A stretch of 64,000 nt of DNA, from IMG/VR virus record IMGVR_UViG_3300046820_000635. The stretch is one strand, 5' to 3'. The stretch comes from a virus (taxonomy: Duplodnaviria > Heunggongvirae > Uroviricota > Caudoviricetes). The position numbers were made by a program, and so were the translations under genes. Shown in pieces: positions 5,467 to 63,525 of this stretch (position 1 is its first letter; each line of letters begins with the position of its first letter). A model generated the notes under the pieces. That model was not told where the DNA came from. It ran no database searches and was given only the letters and a program-made list of their open reading frames with translations.

Positions 5467-6342
5467 ATGTTTAAATATAAGTTATTGCTGTATGAAGCGA
5501 TGAGAAATAAGTTCAAGACGCGGGGCCGAATAGGCAGCATCGAAGTATCGTCCAGCATAAATACATTTATGTATTACTATGTCTATCAAATAACAAACTT
5601 GTTAAACGGTAAGATTTATGTTGGGAAACATAAATCTTCCAAACATCCTTCTGAAAATCAATACTACGGTTCAGGAAAGCAAATCACTGCCGCTATTAAA
5701 AAATACGGCGTAGAAAACTTCAAGAAAGAAGTCTTGCATTATTGTTCTTCTTTAGAAGAAATGGCAGACAAAGAAGCAGAAGTTGTCACAGAAGATTTTG
5801 TAAAAAGACCCGATACATATAACATGCACAAAGGCGGCCCGGGAGGTTGGGACCACTACAACGGCAGCAAAGAGCACAGTGAAAATTCCCGCAAAGGCGG
5901 GAAAAAAGGTGCCAAGCGATTGAATGACTTTATAGCAGAACAAAAAGCCAACAACACAGAATGGTGGCAAAATTGGTATGCTACAGTTGTCGAACAAAAT
6001 CGTGCCAAGAATTCCAATGGCTGGAGCAATTTTACTCCCGACGAATATGAGCAGAGACGAGCACAAGCAAGTAAGTTAGCAACCGGAGAGGGCAATAGTC
6101 AATACGGTAAGATTTGGATCTCAAATGTATTGACTAAAGAAGTAAAACGTATTACAATCAATGATACTATTCCACAAGGATGGGTCAGAGGAAAGAAAGG
6201 GCACGTTCCTACAAAACTTTGGGTAAATAATGGTGTTAAGGAACATTATATCTTACTTGAAAAGAAACAAGAATATGTCCTTAAAGGTTTTAGTAGTGGC
6301 AGACTTAAATCAAGTATGTTACGAACGAGTATAGTAGTTTAA
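5467..6342 (+). CDS. GIY-YIG homing endonuclease (Seg-like)
   Basis: YYYVYQITNLLNGKIYVGKH (GIY-YIG core), later YYGSG and NFKKEV. Basic C-terminal DNA-binding half. The true start may be the ATG at 5569. Confidence 0.75.
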   Translation: MFKYKLLLYEAMRNKFKTRGRIGSIEVSSSINTFMYYYVYQITNLLNGKIYVGKHKSSKHPSENQYYGSGKQITAAIKKYGVENFKKEVLHYCSSLEEMADKEAEVVTEDFVKRPDTYNMHKGGPGGWDHYNGSKEHSENSRKGGKKGAKRLNDFIAEQKANNTEWWQNWYATVVEQNRAKNSNGWSNFTPDEYEQRRAQASKLATGEGNSQYGKIWISNVLTKEVKRITINDTIPQGWVRGKKGHVPTKLWVNNGVKEHYILLEKKQEYVLKGFSSGRLKSSMLRTSIVV

Positions 6343-6360
6343 TGCTTCGATAGAAAGAAG

Positions 6361-6397
6361 TTCTGGACCCGGCTATCGTATGCCGGCAGGTCCACCA
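6361..6397 (+). ncRNA. ssrA: Putative tmRNA acceptor piece (T-arm-like hairpin plus 3' acceptor strand CAGGUCC-ACCA) of a permuted ssrA gene
   Basis: CAGGTCCACCA (6387-6397) is exactly complementary to GGGCCTG at 6539-6545, giving a G3:U70 pair (Ala identity) plus an ACCA tail. It is preceded by the hairpin CCGGC-tatcgtat-GCCGG. Confidence 0.5.
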
Positions 6398-6538
6398 AAA
6401 GAAAATATATGATTGATAAACCATTACCACCAGCAACAAAATATTGGTGTGACGCATGTGGAACTTTAGAAAGTCCAGATAAACACAAAAATATTTTTTG
6501 TAAGTTGTTTAAATGGTTAGATAGTGTTTTCTTTTGAT

Positions 6539-6750
6539 GGGCCTGAAAGGTTTCGACAGGGCAACAAGTATTGACAAGATCTACTCGGCAATGTAGAAGC
6601 CGTTAGGATTGGGGTCTCCCGGTCGAAGAAGCAAAACAAAGTAAACGCAAACGACTCACAGTTCGCATTAGCTGCCTAAACTCAGCTTAGGGTAAGACAT
6701 ACCTCGTAACAGAAACTCAAGAAGGCTACTTCGGTAGCCTTTCTCTTGAT
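6539..6750 (+). ncRNA. ssrA: Putative tmRNA coding piece: 5' acceptor strand GGGCCUG, UUCGAC D-analog, tag reading frame AND SQF ALAA ending in stop
   Basis: GGGCCTGAAAGGTTTCGACAGGG resembles the E. coli tmRNA 5' end GGGGCUGAUUCUGGAUUCGACGGG. gcaaacgactcacagttcgcattagctgcctaa (6647-6679) encodes ANDSQFALAA*. No downstream T-arm or CCA, so a two-piece arrangement is implied. The hairpin GGCTACttcgGTAGCC at 6725-6740 may end the transcript. Confidence 0.6.
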
Positions 6751-6810
6751 CGTGTAAGAAAACTATTATACAATATCAATGTAACTATATAGGTTACTTC
6801 AGTTTATATT

Positions 6811-7113
6811 ATGATAGGTATTGATATTACTAAAATATCAAGGTTTGAAAAGATGATACATTTTCCAGCCTTTCTTAAAAGATTTAATGTCGAAGGCGAT
6901 GATGCTATCTCTGCGGCTAAGACATGGTCCTGTCTTGAGGCTATAGTAAAAGCAGAAGGTCGGTCATTTGCCTACAATAAAATAAAGATTAGATTTCCTG
7001 CAAATAGTTCTCCGGTAGTAGAAGACCCAGAAGGTATCTTACAAGGATCCTATGCACTGTCACTAAGTCATGACGATGACATATTAGTAGCAGTTGCCCT
7101 GCGGCTCATTTAA
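6811..7113 (+). CDS. Holo-ACP synthase-like 4'-phosphopantetheinyl transferase (AcpS family)
   Basis: MIGIDITKISRFEKMI...FLKRFNVEGDDA...AAKTWSCLEAIVKAEG...LSLSHDDDILVAVALR aligns with the bacterial AcpS motifs GIGTDIVEI...KEAAAKA...SLSHEgdyAiA. 100 aa, shorter than typical AcpS. Confidence 0.55.
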   Translation: MIGIDITKISRFEKMIHFPAFLKRFNVEGDDAISAAKTWSCLEAIVKAEGRSFAYNKIKIRFPANSSPVVEDPEGILQGSYALSLSHDDDILVAVALRLI

Positions 7114-24080: not shown

Positions 24081-26135
24081 TTGATGCAAATCAAACTAAA
24101 ATCTTTGCTGTTAAGCCCGTGGACAGCAGTAATCACACTGGCACTAGTACTAGGTATCCGCGTTAGCGATCCAGCGTTTGTAGAAAGCGTTAGACTACGT
24201 TATTTTGACACACTAATCACTGCTAAAGAACCTACACAAAATAATATTGTTACGGTTAACATTGACGAAGAATCTTTAGATAAACTAGGACAATGGCCTT
24301 TACCGAGGGCAGAGTATGCTAAAATTATTAAAGACTTGTATGATAGGGGCGCTGGCCTTGTTGTTCTCAACGTGCTTATGGCTGAGCCTGATCGCACTGG
24401 TGGTGACTCAGCTCTTGCCCAGGCTCTTTCTCAATATCCAGTAGTTCTAGGTAGTGTACCTAGCGACAAAACAAAAAACATTCCACGCAATCCGGGCAGT
24501 GCTGTTCTGGGACCAGAGTTTCTTGATCAAATCATAACCTATCCCGGAATCATTGCCAATATACCTCCTCTAGAAAAATCAGCAGCAGGGATTGGTATTG
24601 TAAATACTCTACCAGAAGTTGATGGTGTAAATCGCCGATTACCTTTGATTGCCGGTGTTGACGGCAAACTATACCCAAGCATAGCTATGGAGACACTGCG
24701 AGTAGCAGCAGGCGATTCAACCTTTCAAGTAAAGCTCAACGAGAATGGCGTTGAGAAAATGCGTATTCCAAAGTTTGGCCCTATTACTACGGACAACTTT
24801 GGACGCATCTGGGTCGATTGGAGCCAGGAGAATCAAAGTGTAAGTCTAACTAACTTGCCCAAAGATCTCGCTGGCGCTATCGTTATTGTTGGACCTACCG
24901 CAGCAGGGGTGAGCAATCCAGTACCGACTGCTAAGGGTGCAGTATGGCCGCATGATGTTCAAGCCGCAGTTATTGGTACAATGGTCAATGGCGTTGTTAT
25001 ACAGAGGCCTGACTATGCAGACGGTCTAGAAATACTTGCTATTGCATTAGCAGGATTAATTTTATTATTTTTAACAAGGTGGACTTATGTTGGATTGGGT
25101 GCAACTATTGTTATTGCTGTGGGCGGCTACGTTGCTAGTAGCTACGCTTTCAGTAACTTTCTATTCTTATTTGATACTACTGCCTTTACAGCTGGCACAG
25201 TCTTGGTCGCTTTGCATGCCTATGGTGTCAAGTTTGTAAGTGAGTTTTTACAGAAGCAGGCAATCAAGAAACAGTTTGCTGGCTACTGCTCAAAAGAAGT
25301 AGTAGAGATGCTACAGAAAGATCCAGACTTAATCAAGCGTGGTGTGCGTAAAGACGTGTCAGTTATGTTTAGTGACTTGCGTGGATTTACTCCTATTGGT
25401 GAACATTACGGTGATGATGTAGGCGGACTAGGCAAGTACATGAACGGCTACATGGATGCTATTAGTCGTCCTATTATGGACAACAAGGGTATGGTTATCA
25501 AGTATGTAGGTGATGCGTCAATGCACATCCATGGAGCTCCTATTGAAGATCCTAACCACGCTAGAACTATTGTTGCTGTTGGCCTACAGATGTTAGATGC
25601 TGTTGATGCCTATACAAAAGAAATGGAAGCACAAGGATTACCACCAGCCGCAATGGGTTGGGGTTGTAACACAGGTATTGGCTTCATTGGCGAGATGGGT
25701 TCAACTGATAGGCACAGCTATGACATCTTAGGCGACATGGTTTCAACTGCGGCTCGCTTAGAAGCACGTTGCAAGGCTTATGGCGTACTATGTATTATTG
25801 GTGCTGAAACATACAACCGCACTAAAGATGATTTCTTCTACTTGTGTATCGATAACTTACAACCCAAGGGCAAGTCAGTAGCAGACTTAATATATACAGC
25901 ACTACGCCCCAACGGTGAGGACTGGAGTAAAGACCTAGTTAAGTACAACGAAATGCAAGCCCTGTACAAGGCTAAGAAGTTTGACGAAGCTGCTGCTATG
26001 TGCTCTAAGATGAAAGGTACATTCGGTGGACAAATGGACAAGTATTATAAGATTTGGATTGAACGTTGTGACTTCATGAAACAGCAAGATCTAGGCCCAG
26101 ATTGGCAGGGAGAGTTTATAGCGAATGAAAAATAA
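24081..26135 (+). CDS. CHASE2 sensor domain - multi-TM - class III adenylate/guanylate cyclase
   Basis: N-terminal TM plus an extracytoplasmic CHASE2-like region, about 4 TM helices, then VSVMFSDLRGFTPIGEHY...GDASMHIHGAP (cyclase metal-binding Asp and transition-state residues). Confidence 0.75.
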   Translation: MMQIKLKSLLLSPWTAVITLALVLGIRVSDPAFVESVRLRYFDTLITAKEPTQNNIVTVNIDEESLDKLGQWPLPRAEYAKIIKDLYDRGAGLVVLNVLMAEPDRTGGDSALAQALSQYPVVLGSVPSDKTKNIPRNPGSAVLGPEFLDQIITYPGIIANIPPLEKSAAGIGIVNTLPEVDGVNRRLPLIAGVDGKLYPSIAMETLRVAAGDSTFQVKLNENGVEKMRIPKFGPITTDNFGRIWVDWSQENQSVSLTNLPKDLAGAIVIVGPTAAGVSNPVPTAKGAVWPHDVQAAVIGTMVNGVVIQRPDYADGLEILAIALAGLILLFLTRWTYVGLGATIVIAVGGYVASSYAFSNFLFLFDTTAFTAGTVLVALHAYGVKFVSEFLQKQAIKKQFAGYCSKEVVEMLQKDPDLIKRGVRKDVSVMFSDLRGFTPIGEHYGDDVGGLGKYMNGYMDAISRPIMDNKGMVIKYVGDASMHIHGAPIEDPNHARTIVAVGLQMLDAVDAYTKEMEAQGLPPAAMGWGCNTGIGFIGEMGSTDRHSYDILGDMVSTAARLEARCKAYGVLCIIGAETYNRTKDDFFYLCIDNLQPKGKSVADLIYTALRPNGEDWSKDLVKYNEMQALYKAKKFDEAAAMCSKMKGTFGGQMDKYYKIWIERCDFMKQQDLGPDWQGEFIANEK

Positions 26136-33971: not shown

Positions 33972-34046
33972 GCGCTATTAGCTAAGTGGCATAGCAGGAG
34001 CCTCTAAAACTCCGTAGCGTGGGTTCGATTCCCACATAGCGCACCA
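33972..34046 (+). tRNA. tRNA with CUA anticodon (amber-reading suppressor-type tRNA), CCA encoded
   Basis: Perfect 7-bp acceptor GCGCTAT/ATAGCGC, D arm GCTA-AGTGGCA-TAGC, anticodon arm GGAGC-CTCTAAA-ACTCC (U33, A37), T arm GTGGG-TTCGATT-CCCAC, discriminator A, CCA. Confidence 0.65.
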
Positions 34047-59998: not shown

Positions 59999-60084
59999 GG
60001 AGTCGTAGGAAAATTGGTAACCCCAGTGGACTGTAAATCCGCCGCCCTTGTGCATTACTGGTTCAAGTCCAGTCGGCTCCACCA
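59999..60084 (+). tRNA. tRNA-Tyr (GUA), type II
   Basis: Anticodon arm GTGGA-CTGTAAA-TCCGC, long variable arm, T arm ACTGG-TTCAAGT-CCAGT, CCA encoded. Confidence 0.7.
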
Positions 60085-60089
60085 TATAT

Positions 60090-60165
60090 GCTTCGTTAGC
60101 TCAATTGGGAGAGCGCGACACTGTCACTGTCGAGGTAAGGGGATCGAAACCCCTACGAGGCGCCA
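60090..60165 (+). tRNA. tRNA-Asp (GUC)
   Basis: GCTTCGT/ACGAGGC acceptor, CGACA-CTGTCAC-TGTCG, GCCA end. Confidence 0.75.
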
Positions 60166-60172
60166 AGTTTAT

Positions 60173-60246
60173 GTATCCCTAATGTAATGGCAGCATCACA
60201 GTCTCCAAAACTGTTCGTCGGAGTTCGAGTCTCTGGGGGTACGCCA
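60173..60246 (+). tRNA. tRNA-Trp (CCA)
   Basis: ACAGT-CTCCAAA-ACTGT anticodon arm, as in E. coli tRNA-Trp. CGGAG-TTCGAGT-CTCTG T arm. Confidence 0.7.
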
Positions 60247-60262
60247 AGTTTCAATAATATAT

Positions 60263-60337
60263 GGACCGTTCGTCTATCGGTCAGGACATTAGGTTTTCAT
60301 CCTAAGAAGAGGGGTTCGATTCCCCTACGGTCTTCCA
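60263..60337 (+). tRNA. tRNA-Glu (UUC), copy 1
   Basis: D arm TTCGTCTA..GG.CAGGACA as in E. coli tRNA-Glu. TTAGG-TTTTCAT-CCTAA. AGGGG-TTCGATT-CCCCT. Confidence 0.7.
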
Positions 60338-60343
60338 TATAAT

Positions 60344-60417
60344 GCGGGTATGATGTAAAGGTAACCTGAAACCTTGCCAAGGTTTATTTGCGAGTTCGAT
60401 TCTCGCTACCCGCTCCA
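60344..60417 (+). tRNA. tRNA-Gly (GCC)
   Basis: GCGGGTA/TACCCGC acceptor, AAACC-TTGCCAA-GGTTT, GCGAGTTCGATTCTCGC, U73-CCA. Confidence 0.75.
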
Positions 60418-60422
60418 ACAAT

Positions 60423-60500
60423 GCACACGTGGCAGAGAGGCCCAATGCAACTGATTGCAAACCAGTAAAACCGCAGGTTCAAATCCTGCCGTGTGCTCCA
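60423..60500 (+). tRNA. tRNA-Cys (GCA)
   Basis: GCACACG/CGTGTGC acceptor, loop TTGCAAA, U73-CCA. Confidence 0.7.
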
Positions 60501-60627
60501 ATATACAAATGGCAAAAAGTTTCAACGTAGTTGAGATGGCTGAGAAGAGAAGTGCCTTGATAAGGAATAACACGACGAACTTTAAATAGTGGGATACAAA
60601 ACGCACCACTCCATATTGTACTCATTT

Positions 60628-60704
60628 ACCCCAGTGGCGCAACTGGTAGACGTGCTTCTCTCAAAAGGAAGATGCTGAAGGTTCGAATCCTTCCTGGGGT
60701 ACCA
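60628..60704 (+). tRNA. Leu-like tRNA, anticodon CAA, but type I (short variable arm)
   Basis: ACCCCAG/CTGGGGT acceptor, A73-CCA, D loop AACTGGTAGAC, anticodon arm CTTCT-CTCAAAA-GGAAG, T arm GAAGG-TTCGAAT-CCTTC. Confidence 0.5.
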
Positions 60705-60710
60705 AACAAT

Positions 60711-60802
60711 GGAAAGTAATGCAGCTGGGATGGTCCGGCGACTAGCCTTGAAAACTAGGTTCTCAGAAATGGGATGGGGTTCGACTCCTCTGCTTTCCGC
60801 CA
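60711..60802 (+). tRNA. tRNA-Ser (UGA), type II
   Basis: GGAAAGT/GCTTTCC acceptor, loop CTTGAAA, long variable arm, G73-CCA. Confidence 0.7.
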
Positions 60803-60807
60803 AATAT

Positions 60808-60881
60808 TCCTCTATAGTTAAATGGTATAACAATCGGCTGATAACCGGTCATTCCACGTTCAATTCGTGGTGGAGGAACCA
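60808..60881 (+). tRNA. tRNA-Ile (GAU)
   Basis: ATCGG-CTGATAA-CCGGT, CCACG-TTCAATT-CGTGG, A73-CCA. Confidence 0.7.
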
Positions 60882-61112
60882 AGTTTTGTAAGTGTCAGCA
60901 AGTACAGTCACGCTATCTAGGTAAGTTCGAACTACCGAAATAGTAAAAGGGGACGGGTTCAACTCCCGGCTGCTCGGAAGAGCGGTGCAGATTGGTTGCT
61001 AACTGGACAGGTACCCAAGTGATATCCATCGTGCTCGAGGTCAGGCTAGGCGGCCGGTAGGTCCTGAATAAATCTACGATAAACGTTGACGTAGGCTTAC
61101 AAATTCAATTAT

Positions 61113-61186
61113 CTGGGTGTAGGATAATGGTAGTCGACGAAGCTTGGATCTTCGAGGCGCAGGTTCGATTCCTGCCACCCAGACCA
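61113..61186 (+). tRNA. tRNA-Pro (UGG)
   Basis: CTGGGTG/CACCCAG acceptor, CGAAG-CTTGGAT-CTTCG, GCAGG-TTCGATT-CCTGC, A73-CCA. Confidence 0.7.
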
Positions 61187-61389
61187 TTTATGTCATGGTG
61201 TAATGAGAATGCACAGGATCGCCATTATAAAATCCTTCGGGTGATGGAACAAGGTTCAGGTACGGTAAGAACCCGTAACGACAATATTTTCTGCAGAAAG
61301 AACAGAGACACGGTGGTCCTAAAGGTGTGGGGACTATAAAAGCCGAGCAACGTCTGGGGTACAACTCCATACGCACCGACAAATTCTAT

Positions 61390-61468
61390 TCCGTGAAATC
61401 CAAGCAGGGTGCAAGGACTTGACTGTTAATCAATGATTAGGTGGGTTCGATCCCCACACACGGAGCCA
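61390..61468 (+). tRNA. tRNA-Asn (GUU)
   Basis: TCCGTGA/ACACGGA acceptor, loop CTGTTAA, GTGGG-TTCGATC-CCCAC, G73-CCA. Confidence 0.65.
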
Positions 61469-61484
61469 AATAAAGGAGAATGCA

Positions 61485-61697
61485 ATGAGCATCAAAGAAA
61501 TGGTGGCAGGTAAGTCAGTTAAGTTTGTTAGATACCAACGTAAAGAGTTGTGGTATGTAACTGAATGCGGATTTGAATTTCCTGTACCAATCGAAGATAC
61601 TGGTGATGCTGCATTTAACGACAGCGACAAGGCTATGTTGTTTATGAGATGGATTCGTAAGCACAAAGAGATGTTAGCTGAAGCAGTAACAGAATAA
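61485..61697 (+). CDS. small protein (70 aa) carrying the paralog-family motif internally (…FNDSDKAMLFMRWIRKH…)
   Basis: AAGGAG RBS. Sits between tRNA genes. Confidence 0.5.
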   Translation: MSIKEMVAGKSVKFVRYQRKELWYVTECGFEFPVPIEDTGDAAFNDSDKAMLFMRWIRKHKEMLAEAVTE

Positions 61698-61699
61698 TG

Positions 61700-61773
61700 G
61701 GGGGAGCCGAGGGCGGCGGCGTTGCTTTGCAAGCATCGTGACTACAAGGGTTCGATACCCTGGTCCTCCACCA
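61700..61773 (+). tRNA. Atypical tRNA, possibly tRNA-Ala (UGC)
   Basis: GGGGGAG/GTCCTCC acceptor with G3:U70, A73-CCA, loop TTTGCAA, T arm AGGG-TTCGATA-CCCT. The D arm is truncated and the variable region is long. Confidence 0.4.
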
Positions 61774-62009
61774 AGAATGTCTGGGTCTGACATGGTGTTT
61801 CTGAAGAGGTTGATCACTCTGAGGAGAATGTGGTTCGATACCACGCCCGGCGCCAACTTTCGAAGATAGACGTACTGCTTGAGTCCCAAGTAACTGGCGC
61901 TAAGAGCGCAATGGTTTGACAGTGAAGTATGGTTTGTTAAAACTCGCGGATACGAGACAATCTAGTGAGTCCTCCCAGGAGGATAGTTAGGCTCTTCGAA
62001 AACCTTTAT

Positions 62010-62085
62010 ATCGCGTTGGACTTCTGGGTTAGGTCATCACCCTTTCAAGGTGACTAGACGGGTTCGATTCCCGTACGCGATACCA
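62010..62085 (+). tRNA. tRNA with UUC anticodon (Glu), copy 2, A73
   Basis: ATCGCGT/ACGCGAT acceptor, TCACC-CTTTCAA-GGTGA, ACGGG-TTCGATT-CCCGT. Confidence 0.65.
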
Positions 62086-62089
62086 ATAT

Positions 62090-62165
62090 GCCCCTGAAAC
62101 CTTTAATGGATGAGGTCCTGTTTTGTAAGCAGGAGAAGTCGGTTCGATTCCGGACTGGGGCACCA
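62090..62165 (+). tRNA. tRNA-Thr (UGU)
   Basis: CCTGT-TTTGTAA-GCAGG, GGGCACCA end. Confidence 0.65.
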
Positions 62166-62178
62166 ATACAAGGAGATT

Positions 62179-62244
62179 ATGATGGCAATAGTTGTTGTAG
62201 TAATAATCTTCGTTACATTATATATTTTTATAAGGAAACTTTGA
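62179..62244 (+). CDS. 21-aa hydrophobic micro-protein MMAIVVVVIIFVTLYIFIRKL
   Basis: Perfect AAGGAG RBS 6 nt upstream. Lies between tRNA genes. Confidence 0.35.
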   Translation: MMAIVVVVIIFVTLYIFIRKL

Positions 62245-62332
62245 CATGAAACGTACTGACAAACGATAGTGTCATTCTAGACCCCCGTATGGTCCTGGAT
62301 GGCACGTAAAAGAAAATCTAATACGATTCCAT

Positions 62333-62408
62333 CCCTTGTTAGCGTTAACGGTAGCGCACTTGACTCTTAATCAATGAGGTCTCGGTTCGAATCCGAGGCA
62401 AGGGACCA
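62333..62408 (+). tRNA. tRNA-Lys (CUU)
   Basis: CCCTTGT/GCAAGGG acceptor, loop CTCTTAA, TCTCG-GTTCGAA-TCCGAG, A73-CCA. Confidence 0.65.
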
Positions 62409-62411
62409 TAT

Positions 62412-62485
62412 GGGGGTGAAGCTTTAAGGTGAAGCAACGAGCTTTTAACTCGTAGAACAGGGGTCAGTACCCTGTACCCCTACCA
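62412..62485 (+). tRNA. tRNA-Lys (UUU)
   Basis: ACGAG-CTTTTAA-CTCGT, D arm GCTT-TAAGGTG-AAGC, A73-CCA. Confidence 0.65.
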
Positions 62486-62945
62486 TATAAAAGACAATTG
62501 ACAGCGAACACAGGTACAAGGGCCCTTGTAGCCTAGTAACTGGCAGTTAACAATGCCAAGTGGAGAGGAAAGGTTTTCGCGACCAACGCCGTGCCAGCAA
62601 CATTGTTTTCGCAGTTGTCTTCTATATGGTAAATGTTATCTGCAGGTAACATCCATATTGGGGAGTAATTAACCTCAAGAACTCGCGGTGATGGAATGGT
62701 AGACATAGGCCCATTATGGGGTCAGTGGAAATAAACGCCACATGCAGGTTCGAGTCCTGCCCGCAATGAGTTTGCAACAAACAAGTCGGCATGTGTGTCC
62801 ACCGTGCATTAACCGACGATAAACAAAGCTAGGGCAAGCGCCAGTTAACGGTGGAGCTCATACAAAAACATATTCGAAGACTTGTGCATAGCACCTGGAA
62901 CGGATGGGCACGCCGGAGGACCTGGGCCTGAGTATGTTTCTATAT

Positions 62946-63021
62946 GGTGATGTAGTTCAGTTGGTAGAACACCTCCTTCATACGGAGACTGTCGGCGGTT
63001 CAAATCCGTCCATCACTACCA
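62946..63021 (+). tRNA. tRNA with CAU anticodon (Met; T arm GGCGG-TTCAAAT-CCGTC is initiator-like)
   Basis: GGTGATG/CATCACT acceptor, loop TTCATAC, A73-CCA. Confidence 0.6.
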
Positions 63022-63028
63022 AATTTGT

Positions 63029-63102
63029 TGGTCTATGGTGTAATGGTAACACAACAGACTTTGACTCTGTCGTTCCAGGTTCGAGCCCTGGTAGGCCTGC
63101 CA
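63029..63102 (+). tRNA. tRNA-Gln (UUG)
   Basis: ACAGA-CTTTGAC-TCTGT, CCAGG-TTCGAGC-CCTGG, 1:72 U-U mismatch (E. coli has weak U1-A72), G73-CCA. Confidence 0.65.
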
Positions 63103-63111
63103 ACAATAAAT

Positions 63112-63203
63112 GCCAGCGAGACTTGGTAGTCAGAGAGTCCTTATAAGACTTTTAGCGCCAGATTAGCGTTCTTGAGTGGGTTCGATTCCCACCGCTGGTA
63201 CCA
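63112..63203 (+). tRNA. Type II tRNA with Leu-like acceptor (GCCAGCG, A73) but apparent UAU anticodon
   Basis: 7-bp anticodon stem GAGAGTC/GACTTTT with loop CTTATAA. Long variable arm. GTGGG-TTCGATT-CCCAC. CCA encoded. Confidence 0.5.
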
Positions 63204-63207
63204 ATAT

Positions 63208-63282
63208 CGGTCCTTAGTTCAATGGATAGAATGCCATGCTTCGAACTTGGAGATGTGGGTTCGATTCCTGCAGGACCGGCCA
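63208..63282 (+). tRNA. tRNA-Arg (UCG)
   Basis: CGGTCCT/AGGACCG acceptor, loop CTTCGAA, G73-CCA. Confidence 0.6.
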
Positions 63283-63289
63283 AAGATAT

Positions 63290-63364
63290 GCGTCCGTCGT
63301 ATAGTGGAGAATACACGATCCTACGAAGTTCGGAACGGTGGTTCGATTCCATCCGGGCGCACCA
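63290..63364 (+). tRNA. tRNA-Arg (ACG)
   Basis: GCGTCCG/CGGGCGC acceptor, loop CTACGAA identical to E. coli tRNA-Arg, A73-CCA. Confidence 0.7.
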
Positions 63365-63371
63365 AAGTTAT

Positions 63372-63445
63372 AGCGGGTAGGGCGGTCACCACTCCAGTCT
63401 CATAAGCTCGGAGCATCGGCAGTTCGAATCTGTCACCCGCATCCA
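63372..63445 (+). tRNA. Second CAU-anticodon tRNA (Met or Ile2-lysidine type); boundaries uncertain
   Basis: Loop CTCATAA, GGCAG-TTCGAAT-CTGTC, 1:72 mismatch. The D arm is hard to place. Confidence 0.45.
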
Positions 63446-63451
63446 ATCAAT

Positions 63452-63525
63452 GTTGTTCCTAGTGTAGTGGCTGCACACCTGTCTGTGAAACAGGTAGAGA
63501 GGGTTCGATTCCCCGGTTCAACCCA
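63452..63525 (+). tRNA. tRNA-His (GUG) with encoded G-1
   Basis: CCTGT-CTGTGAA-ACAGG. 8-bp acceptor GTTGTTCC/GGTTCAAC (G-1:C73) containing two U-U mismatches. CCA encoded. Confidence 0.6.

Follow-up and report, generated by a model that had tools for sequence, protein, structure and literature searches.

A circularly permuted tmRNA gene in an uncultured marine-type phage, with a small protein gene probably nested in its spacer

What is a protein-coding frame doing in the part of a tmRNA gene that the mature RNA would leave behind? The question is raised by a 64,000-nucleotide stretch of DNA from a tailed virus (Caudoviricetes; IMG/VR record IMGVR_UViG_3300046820_000635), which we call the window. 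An initial annotation had read in it a tmRNA (ssrA) gene split in two, its acceptor end lying upstream of its coding part, with a segment between them that holds a 42-codon open reading frame (ORF). The two-piece tmRNA of Caulobacter goes back to Keiler, Shapiro & Williams (2000), as cited in PMC9004378 and PMC11915505. Phage examples are already catalogued, two-piece genes accounting for 53 of 133 unique phage tmRNAs, that of the Methylophilales phage Melnitz included (PMC9004378). A phage two-piece tmRNA is therefore known as such; what is new is the nested mini-protein gene, a clade of genes to which the program ARAGORN is blind, and the modular exchange of their parts.

The phage and its host

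The long ORFs of the window all lie on the plus strand, as does every feature described below, and its GC content is about 0.41. Searches of PHROG matched phage-specific families over their full length (915 and 634 bits), along with RNR, NAMPT and a NadR-like protein. An adenylate-cyclase-like protein (24081-26135) shares 47% identity with its counterpart in Melnitz and 36% with the one in Pelagibacter phage HTVC008M. These two are the nearest cultured relatives, and the links to them are at the protein level only; DNA searches against named phages with 1 kb, with 25 kb and with the tmRNA coding piece alone returned no relatives. Because it has protein links to both phages and no DNA match to a named one, the window comes from an uncultured, large T4-like myophage of marine type, in the neighbourhood of Melnitz and the pelagimyophages. 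A DnaK homologue, tried as a taxonomic marker, proved a poor one.

The type of the tmRNA had been taken as a hint at the host clade. The hint turns out to be weak: phage ssrA genes are recombination mosaics, and Melnitz carries an alpha-type ssrA though its host is OM43 (PMC9004378), both of which make host inference from tmRNA type unreliable. A scan of 596 Gb of genome contigs with a 5' motif of 17 specified bases gave mostly chance matches in coding genes of high-GC bacteria, and since the pattern is too short it yields no host information.

A permuted tmRNA gene

Run over the 64-kb window, the Rfam covariance model RF04321 (tmRNA_permuted) scores 91.6 bits at 6333-6679 against a gathering threshold of 47. 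The E-value is 2.3e-16 over the whole window and 3.7e-18 locally, and the match spans the full model (1-213). Covariance models were one of the checks that the initial annotation had proposed for its permuted reading. With a score so far above threshold, the gene order, an invariant G3:U70 pair and compensatory changes among relatives, that reading is confirmed as far as sequence and predicted structure can do so: 6333-6745 is a genuine circularly permuted ssrA gene. Its order is acceptor piece (6333-6397), intervening segment (6398-6538) and coding piece (6539-6745).

The acceptor piece is drawn from the RF04321 alignment and is supported by its T-arm and P2a, which covary among relatives, and by an acceptor stem in which no pair varies. 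It opens with the 5'-side strand of helix P2 (6333-6365), and from 6333 on it overlaps the last codons of the upstream ORF. Next come the T-arm (6369-6386; stem 6369-6373/6382-6386, loop 6374-6381), the 3' acceptor strand CAGGUCC (6387-6393; CAGGTCC in the DNA), the discriminator A73 (6394) and an encoded CCA (6395-6397). This piece had been placed at 6361-6397. Its 3' end holds; its start moves to 6333, where the P2 strand begins.

The coding piece is defined by the RF04321 alignment and by partial alignments to RF01850. Its first part is the 5' acceptor strand GGGCCUG (6539-6545), followed by the D-analog AAAGGUUUCGAC. The D-analog of the tmRNA reads GGUUUCGAC, and GGGCCTG and the D-analog AAAGGTTTCGACAGGG together occupy 6539-6561, just where this element had been claimed to start. 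The 3'-side strand of P2 (6558-6586) pairs with 6333-6365 in the Rfam alignment, and a hairpin region separates it from the tag frame (6647-6679). Read from the sequence and falling in the Rfam tag region, that frame starts at the resume codon GCA and runs gca aac gac tca cag ttc gca tta gct gcc taa, giving the peptide ANDSQFALAA and a UAA stop, the very tag first proposed. It ends in ALAA; relatives have ANDTQFALVA and ANDEQFALAA. The stop codon is held in a hairpin, after which come a conserved CCUCGUAACAGAA motif and a terminator-like terminal hairpin (6722-6741), seen in the fold and trailed by a U-rich tract. The coding piece, first given as 6539-6679, keeps its start and gains an end at about 6745, the terminator-like hairpin now included. 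A separate scan lists the palindrome at 6722-6741 on the minus strand only.

Across the two pieces the acceptor stem is 7 bp long (GGGCCUG:CAGGUCC) and contains G3:U70. The upstream hairpin, the CAGGUCC-ACCA that follows it, its pairing with GGGCCUG and the G:U pair are all present as described. The beta-type model RF01850, also suggested as a check, gives a divided answer. Its alignment takes in only the coding piece, which resembles the beta type, since a 141-nt insertion is more than the model can bridge, and the score of 45.5 bits stays below the threshold of 84. Relatives do pass the threshold, L001 with 131.7 bits and L020 with 93.6. By sequence, then, the ssrA of the window resembles the beta type but lies outside RF01850 by score. 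The glutamine (glnA) riboswitch model RF01739 has no match at E-values up to 10 in 6000-7000, with Melnitz as a positive control at 52.8 bits. As no SmpB gene was found in the window by tblastn with an E. coli SmpB, a weak test, the phage would depend on the SmpB of its host.

Relatives and the precursor fold

Relatives were gathered by exact-motif scans. The T-arm of the window is an odd one, and the clade that shares it consists of viral contigs L001-L003 and 14 contigs added by a metagenome scan (L006-L019). A scan with the 5' strand added L004 and L005, whose T-arms differ. Most of the clade is permuted, with four one-piece members (L002, L006, L011 and L013). In a de-permuted alignment of 10 distinct members all seven pairs of the acceptor stem are invariant, the G:U included, and compensatory changes are seen at 8 of the 19 pairs predicted for the T-arm and P2a; at several P2a pairs AU, GC and UA all occur.

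Folded as one RNA, the precursor (6333-6745) has a minimum free energy of -121.7 kcal/mol (z=-4.98), and the T-arm forms. The ends of the intervening segment pair with each other (6396-6408 with 6524-6536) in a 13-bp closing stem that extends the acceptor stem, an end-complementarity of z=-5.1. The feature is general: of the 86 phage segments that are 40 nt or longer, 85 have z below -2, with or without an ORF. Such near-universal complementarity of segment ends supports a single, processed precursor.

A small gene in the spacer

By analogy with other two-piece genes, the 141-nt segment (6398-6538), bounded by its closing stem and identical to that of L020 at 140 of 141 positions, would be missing from the mature tmRNA. 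A conserved UGAU leader directly precedes G1 of the tmRNA (6539). Inside the segment lies the ORF (6409-6537), whose UGA stop (6535-6537) falls 1 nt before G1 and whose 42-residue product is MIDKPLPPATKYWCDACGTLESPDKHKNIFCKLFKWLDSVFF, of which one part reads MIDKPLPPATKYWCDACGTLESPDK. The ORF of that length reported in the initial annotation is real, and chance seldom supplies one: dinucleotide shuffles match it in only 0.35% of cases (P=0.0035), and the corresponding figure for L003 is 0.27%.

Homology says more than length. A phmmer search of 1.84 billion representatives finds 14 homologues at E<1e-3, with E-values of 1e-7 to 8e-4 to family members other than P0001. Most are 38-48 residues long and four are terminal modules of longer proteins. 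Seven positions are invariant in an alignment of 13 sequences (P8, C14, C17, G18, H26, C31 and W36), so that the family pattern over about 40 residues is P...C-x2-C-G...H-x4-C...W, which the peptide of the window fits. The pattern is like a CCHC knuckle followed by a helix, and the product may be a zinc-knuckle-like protein. Neither the mini-protein nor its longer homologues match Pfam; the family is unnamed and has no Pfam entry. Three homologues could be located, and all three stand alone as genes, away from any tmRNA, in phage arrays whose genes are tightly packed. We show here, on these comparative grounds, that the nested ORF is in all likelihood a genuine small gene rather than mere spacer. 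Copies of the CCHC gene inside a spacer number only two, those of the window and L020, and because the two are nearly identical, selection on them in situ is unmeasurable. The segment also contains a weak promoter-like site (6413-6442, 9 of 12 matches), from which the coding piece may be transcribed separately.

Reading frames in phage tmRNA spacers

The window is not alone in having a frame in its spacer. Segments in its clade range from 19 to 141 nt, and ATG ORFs occur only in the two longest classes, of 141 nt (the window and L020) and 138 nt (L003, L027 and L028). In both classes the ORF begins 11 nt past the CCA and ends at the UGA of the leader. We considered the shared stop of the window and L003 ORFs as independent evidence of coding and rejected it, as the UGAU leader also occurs in segments that have no ORF. 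The L003 peptide is unrelated to that of the window and belongs to a family of small membrane proteins. Its gene is found in three kinds of place: within the ssrA spacer (L003, L027, L028), immediately before the acceptor piece (L025, L026) and free-standing beside ahpC/ahpF (L029, L030). Synonymous sites in the family are saturated, at a pN of 0.13-0.21.

Melnitz offers a second entry point. The 142-nt spacer of its ssrA contains an unannotated ATG ORF that follows a GGAG and reads across G1. A scan with the Melnitz T-arm turned up 120 viral loci, whose 96 unique spacers measure 3-266 nt, and the two clades pooled give 109 unique phage spacers. Among the 51 that reach 100 nt, 36 have an ATG ORF 30 codons long or longer; when the segments are shuffled with their composition preserved the number is 11.0±3.1, and the highest of 300 trials is 20. 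The 43 spacer peptides fall into 24 clusters, six of them with at least two distinct members. These include an eight-member membrane family ending at the leader UGA, a seven-member family to which the Melnitz ORF belongs and a family of four. With pN/pS at 0.05-0.38 in the informative pairs, the spacer ORFs appear to form conserved families under purifying selection.

Where these ORFs stop is distinctive. The eight-member membrane family, the CCHC pair, the L003 type, L243 and L176 all stop at the UGA of the UGAU, 1 nt before G1. Other spacer ORFs cross G1 into the mature 5' end and stop at +13 or +42. In a literature covered incompletely we came across no account of permuted tmRNA genes whose spacers code for protein. 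Nested genes are apparently common in the tmRNA genes of phages, and the pattern apparently undescribed. The spacer of permuted ssrA thus recurrently houses small protein genes, in at least six recurring families plus many singletons, the Melnitz ORF among them, and would be a new hiding place for phage microproteins.

A mosaic locus and its endonuclease

How a spacer comes by its gene may be read from the relatives. Against L020, the window is 68% identical in the acceptor piece and 82% in the coding piece, with a segment that differs by a single change (A9P) between them, and the outer flanks of the two are unrelated. Against L010, the acceptor piece matches at 65 of 66 positions and the coding piece at about 96% over its positions 1-76, and the segments are unrelated, that of L010 being 75 nt long and having no ORF. 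L014 and L019 give the same picture, with 63 of 66 positions in the acceptor piece, 75 of 76 over positions 1-76 of the coding piece and an unrelated 62-nt segment, again with no ORF. From about position 78 of the coding piece onward, taking in the tag, the stop hairpin and CCUCGUAACAGAA, the window is like L020 and L027 and unlike L010. L014 and L019 have the acceptor piece and spacer in common and differ in their tag modules.

The locus is a recombination mosaic, because the L020 segment sits almost unchanged in a diverged ssrA while the near-identical ssrA genes of L010 and L014 carry unrelated spacers. On these comparisons the gene is built of four modules: the endonuclease and acceptor piece, the spacer, the 5' tRNA-like strand with P2, and the tag with the 3' hairpins. 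Modules one and three, which must pair as P2, are inherited together.

The endonuclease of the first module is encoded by a free-standing homing-endonuclease gene of GIY-YIG type (5467-6342, SegE-like; Pfam PF19835, E=2.1e-7, and PF01541), the 3' end of which lies inside the acceptor piece. In tblastn searches it is directly upstream of ssrA in relatives also, with 96% amino acid identity in L010 and 82% in L018/L019. So linked, the enzyme may promote the exchanges that make the locus a mosaic. Co-conversion with the endonuclease gene does not suffice, on its own, to explain the segment swap, because between the window and L020 the acceptor piece, which lies between that gene and the segment, was not co-converted. 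What the locus appears to show is structural co-adaptation, in the form of matched P2 strands, shaping recombination mosaics, with a homing endonuclease as a possible driver.

Passenger or partner

We think it very probable that the window carries a functional phage ssrA whose spacer hosts a small passenger gene. On the two-piece paradigm of Caulobacter, a single precursor would be transcribed and the ends of the 141-nt segment would pair, lengthening the acceptor stem. RNase P would cut before G6539 and 3' processing would trim to CCA6397, and the acceptor and coding pieces would stay joined through the acceptor stem and helix P2. AlaRS would then charge the RNA by way of G3:U70 and A73. With host SmpB the tmRNA would rescue stalled ribosomes, appending ANDSQFALAA, a degron of the ALAA type. 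We infer the two-piece processing, the aminoacylation and the translation of the ORF by analogy. The tmRNA itself would be one more example of a known phage accessory, and its likely role is to keep ribosomes free or to tag proteins while the phage infects streamlined marine hosts.

The nested gene, for its part, would be a passenger, housed in a spacer that is dispensable and well transcribed. Phages could exchange it by recombining within the conserved tmRNA sequences that flank it, and selection for matched P2 strands would remove single crossovers within the spacer, so that only whole-segment swaps would be seen. Either the precursor or the 141-nt RNA set free from it could serve as the message for this gene; translation and processing of one and the same molecule would interfere, because the leader and last codons of the ORF sit in the closing stem. 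We favour the passenger because the families are unrelated, homologues stand free and close relatives do without an ORF. One feature it leaves unexplained is that many nested ORFs end exactly at, or cross, the RNase P site.

The alternative that survives best, which we consider improbable though worth keeping in sight, is a functional coupling between the nested ORF and the tmRNA. It might take three forms. Ribosomes translating the ORF on the precursor could open both the closing stem and the acceptor stem, and thereby gate cleavage by RNase P and maturation of the 3' end. Or the excised segment could be the mRNA, its stop lying 1 nt from the 3' end that RNase P makes or, as in the Melnitz type, missing, so that trans-translation would have in it a built-in substrate or sensor. 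Or the mini-protein could act on the machinery of trans-translation or proteolysis. It is a point for coupling that ORFs of mutually unrelated families should stop 1 nt before G1 or run across it, that leader and last codons should make up the closing stem, that long segments should be so strongly enriched in ORFs, and that the gene for the L003-type peptide should adjoin ssrA in two different arrangements. Against it, the peptide families, in 24 clusters, are unrelated to each other, two of them have free-standing homologues away from any tmRNA, and the close relatives L010, L014 and L019, whose tmRNA parts are near-identical, carry no ORF. The UGAU leader, moreover, occurs without an ORF, so the common stop position could be a by-product. 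There is a small chance, then, that pre-tmRNA is also mRNA, an unrecognised class of dual-function RNA in which translation of the nested ORF is tied to maturation or to trans-translation. If true, ribosome occupancy could gate RNase P cleavage; alternatively the excised segment, as a stop-at-the-end or non-stop mRNA, could report on tmRNA activity during infection or titrate it. A processing precursor that is an mRNA as well makes a testable case, since Melnitz and its OM43 host are in culture.

Much less probable is a segment that is simply a structured processing spacer, its 42-codon frame incidental and untranslated. The ORF has no clear Shine-Dalgarno sequence and its leader, AAAGAAAAUAU, is sequestered in the 13-bp stem; AlphaFold2 (AF2) models the CCHC family with low confidence (pLDDT 62.7), placing a β-hairpin at the CxxC and a helix at the C-terminus; and the stop codon comes from a leader conserved for other reasons. 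An incidental frame would, however, have to be of a length rare in shuffles and to encode by accident the invariant CCHC, P, G and W of 14 homologues, most of them annotated as genes of 38-48 residues in phage operons. It would also stand apart from the analogous nested ORFs of other spacers, with their low pN/pS. The passenger gene therefore remains our reading of the frame.

A T-loop that hides a clade

The oddity of the T-arm lies in its loop. The 5-bp stem is present and covaries; the loop (6374-6381) is the 8-nt UAUCGUAU, which departs from the UUCGAAU consensus. ARAGORN, recommended with the initial annotation as a way of checking the region, calls no tmRNA there and reports 21 tRNAs. 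The T-loop is the reason for the miss. After an in-silico swap to a canonical T-arm the program calls 'tmRNA* ... ANDSQFALAA*', it finds relatives that have canonical T-loops and equally long spacers (L020, L027, L005 and Melnitz), and it misses every relative that bears the UAUCGUAU loop. The long spacer was tried as the cause, and in-silico shortening gave no rescue.

The UAUCGUAU loop is kept in at least 14 metagenomic genes, one-piece and two-piece, with covarying stems, and this conservation suggests that it works. That the gene is instead a decayed remnant, whether host debris or an ssrA disabled by its odd T-loop and the insertion of a foreign gene, is the least credible reading: the silence of ARAGORN, the departure from UUCGAAU and the sub-threshold score with the beta_tmRNA model (45.5 bits against 84) might suggest it, but every functional element is intact, the paired regions covary among relatives, those at least 14 genes are independent and have compensatory stem changes, the tag frame is intact to its final ALAA, and the low RF01850 score is due to an insertion longer than the model spans. 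An entire clade of phage tmRNA genes, marked by its non-canonical T-loop, thus escapes the standard detector, and phage ssrA is therefore under-annotated.

Comparison with known systems

The closest parallel is the two-piece ssrA of Melnitz, the OM43 phage, and of related pelagimyophage-like phages (Buchholz et al. 2022, PMC9004378). As in the window, the permuted gene is borne by a marine myophage of T4-like type. The spacers are of nearly the same length (142 nt in Melnitz, 141 nt in the window), and each has a closing stem with an ATG ORF inside. The genes themselves differ: that of Melnitz is alpha-type (RF01849, 106.7 bits), with the acceptor strand GGGGGCG and a canonical T-loop, whereas that of the window is beta-like, with GGGCCUG and a non-canonical loop. 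A glutamine riboswitch follows the Melnitz coding piece and none is found in the window. The two nested ORFs are unrelated in sequence, that of Melnitz crossing G1, and the two phages have no similarity at the DNA level. The Melnitz spacer and its ORF are neither annotated nor discussed in the original description (PMC9004378).

Bacterial permuted tmRNAs (Caulobacter; RF01849, RF01850, RF01851 and RF04321), with 11,946 genes in the tmRNA database, have the gene order of the window, and share with it a tRNA-like domain made from two pieces, a P2 that joins them and a tag ending in AA. The 2025 paper on that database says of the intervening sequence simply that the mature RNA lacks it, and the only cargo it notes in spacers is one tRNA-Ala gene and one repetitive element (PMC11915505). 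The spacer of the window, unlike these, holds a protein-coding gene. Homing-endonuclease genes are described there only in the group I introns of intron-form tmRNA genes, and are of the LAGLIDADG type (PMC11915505). Those genes resemble the window in having an ORF in a part of ssrA lost from the mature RNA and in their association with homing endonucleases. In the intron form, however, a self-splicing intron interrupts the T-loop of a standard gene and the ORF is the endonuclease. In the window the ORF lies in the spacer of a permuted gene, from which tRNA-processing enzymes would remove it; its product is the 42-residue CCHC peptide, and the GIY-YIG gene is separate and upstream.

T4-like phages carry free-standing GIY-YIG endonucleases of the Seg type in or next to tRNA genes, SegB for example. 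The GIY-YIG gene of the window likewise abuts a gene for a conserved structured RNA, and the neighbouring sequence is mosaic, as would be expected from co-conversion in repair triggered by an endonuclease. The swapped segment of the window differs in having sharp boundaries, unlike a simple co-conversion gradient.

One-piece relatives and module variation

Not every relative of the permuted gene is split. Standard one-piece tmRNA genes occur in four of the related viral and metagenomic contigs, L002 (8680-9040), L006, L011 and L013. In L002, L006 and L013, the T-arm, the 3' strand of the acceptor and the CCA are base-for-base those of the permuted window gene, an identity judged by the 33-mer GGACCCGGCTATCGTATGCCGGCAGGTCCACCA in L002. 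Such agreement between genes of different architecture implies one of two histories: either modules would have passed between one-piece and two-piece genes, or permutation would have taken place recently, within phages.

The tag also varies. The window and other relatives encode tags of 10 amino acids, whereas some relatives (among L003, L012 and L014) carry very long ones of ~33 amino acids, for example ANTNASGTVKVKMAKGFRFGSKAANDSSVLLAA. Between L014 and L019, the tag module is the sole difference. The L012 gene encodes CCT instead of CCA. A gene of ~95 nt on the minus strand of L004, a high-GC viral contig (~13535-13630), consists of the tRNA-like domain only: GGGCCUGAAAGGUUUCGAC, then the T-arm, then CAGGUCCA. 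It has neither a tag frame nor an encoded CCA and resembles the tmRNA of mycobacteriophage DS6A, which is without a CDS (PMC11915505).

A nested ORF and a riboswitch in Melnitz

In the Methylophilales phage Melnitz (MZ577097.1; regions 6079-6260 and 6399-6560), an unannotated ORF lies inside the annotated tmRNA feature. It occupies the 142-nt intervening segment, is preceded by the Shine-Dalgarno motif GGAG and has conserved homologues in six further viral contigs. A glutamine riboswitch sits 3' of the coding piece, directly upstream of a second unannotated ORF of ~32 codons on the plus strand, and from this position it may control that ORF instead of ssrA.

Other RNA genes and auxiliary genes

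The window has a bank of ~20 tRNA genes (59999-63524). Within it are a 92-nt tRNA-Ile(UAU) (63112-63203), a gene whose anticodon was not determined (62682-62768) and a tRNA that Rfam detects but that is missing from the ARAGORN list (62412-62482). Far from this bank lies a lone tRNA (33972-34046; Rfam tRNA, 62.7 bits), labelled tRNA-Pyl by ARAGORN. It is an amber suppressor with a CUA anticodon, and its presence could point to stop-codon suppression late in infection. Two contigs bearing ssrA genes related to that of the window hold other RNA elements: two group I introns amid dense tRNA arrays in L008 (4275-4470 and 8541-8725; 72.4 and 70.8 bits) and a tRNA-Sec-like gene in L001 (10149-10235), which at 51.4 bits lies above the threshold of 47.

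A set of auxiliary genes that is unusual for a phage occupies 6811-8717 and 14158-16041 of the window. Its products are a full-length DnaK homologue (66-73% identity to bacterial DnaK), an AhpC peroxiredoxin, a member of the AhpD/CMD family, a GDSL-like protein and, by a weak Pfam match, an ACPS-like 4'-phosphopantetheinyl transferase. In another contig, L029, ahpC/ahpF neighbour the gene for the L003-type membrane peptide, one of a family of small proteins.
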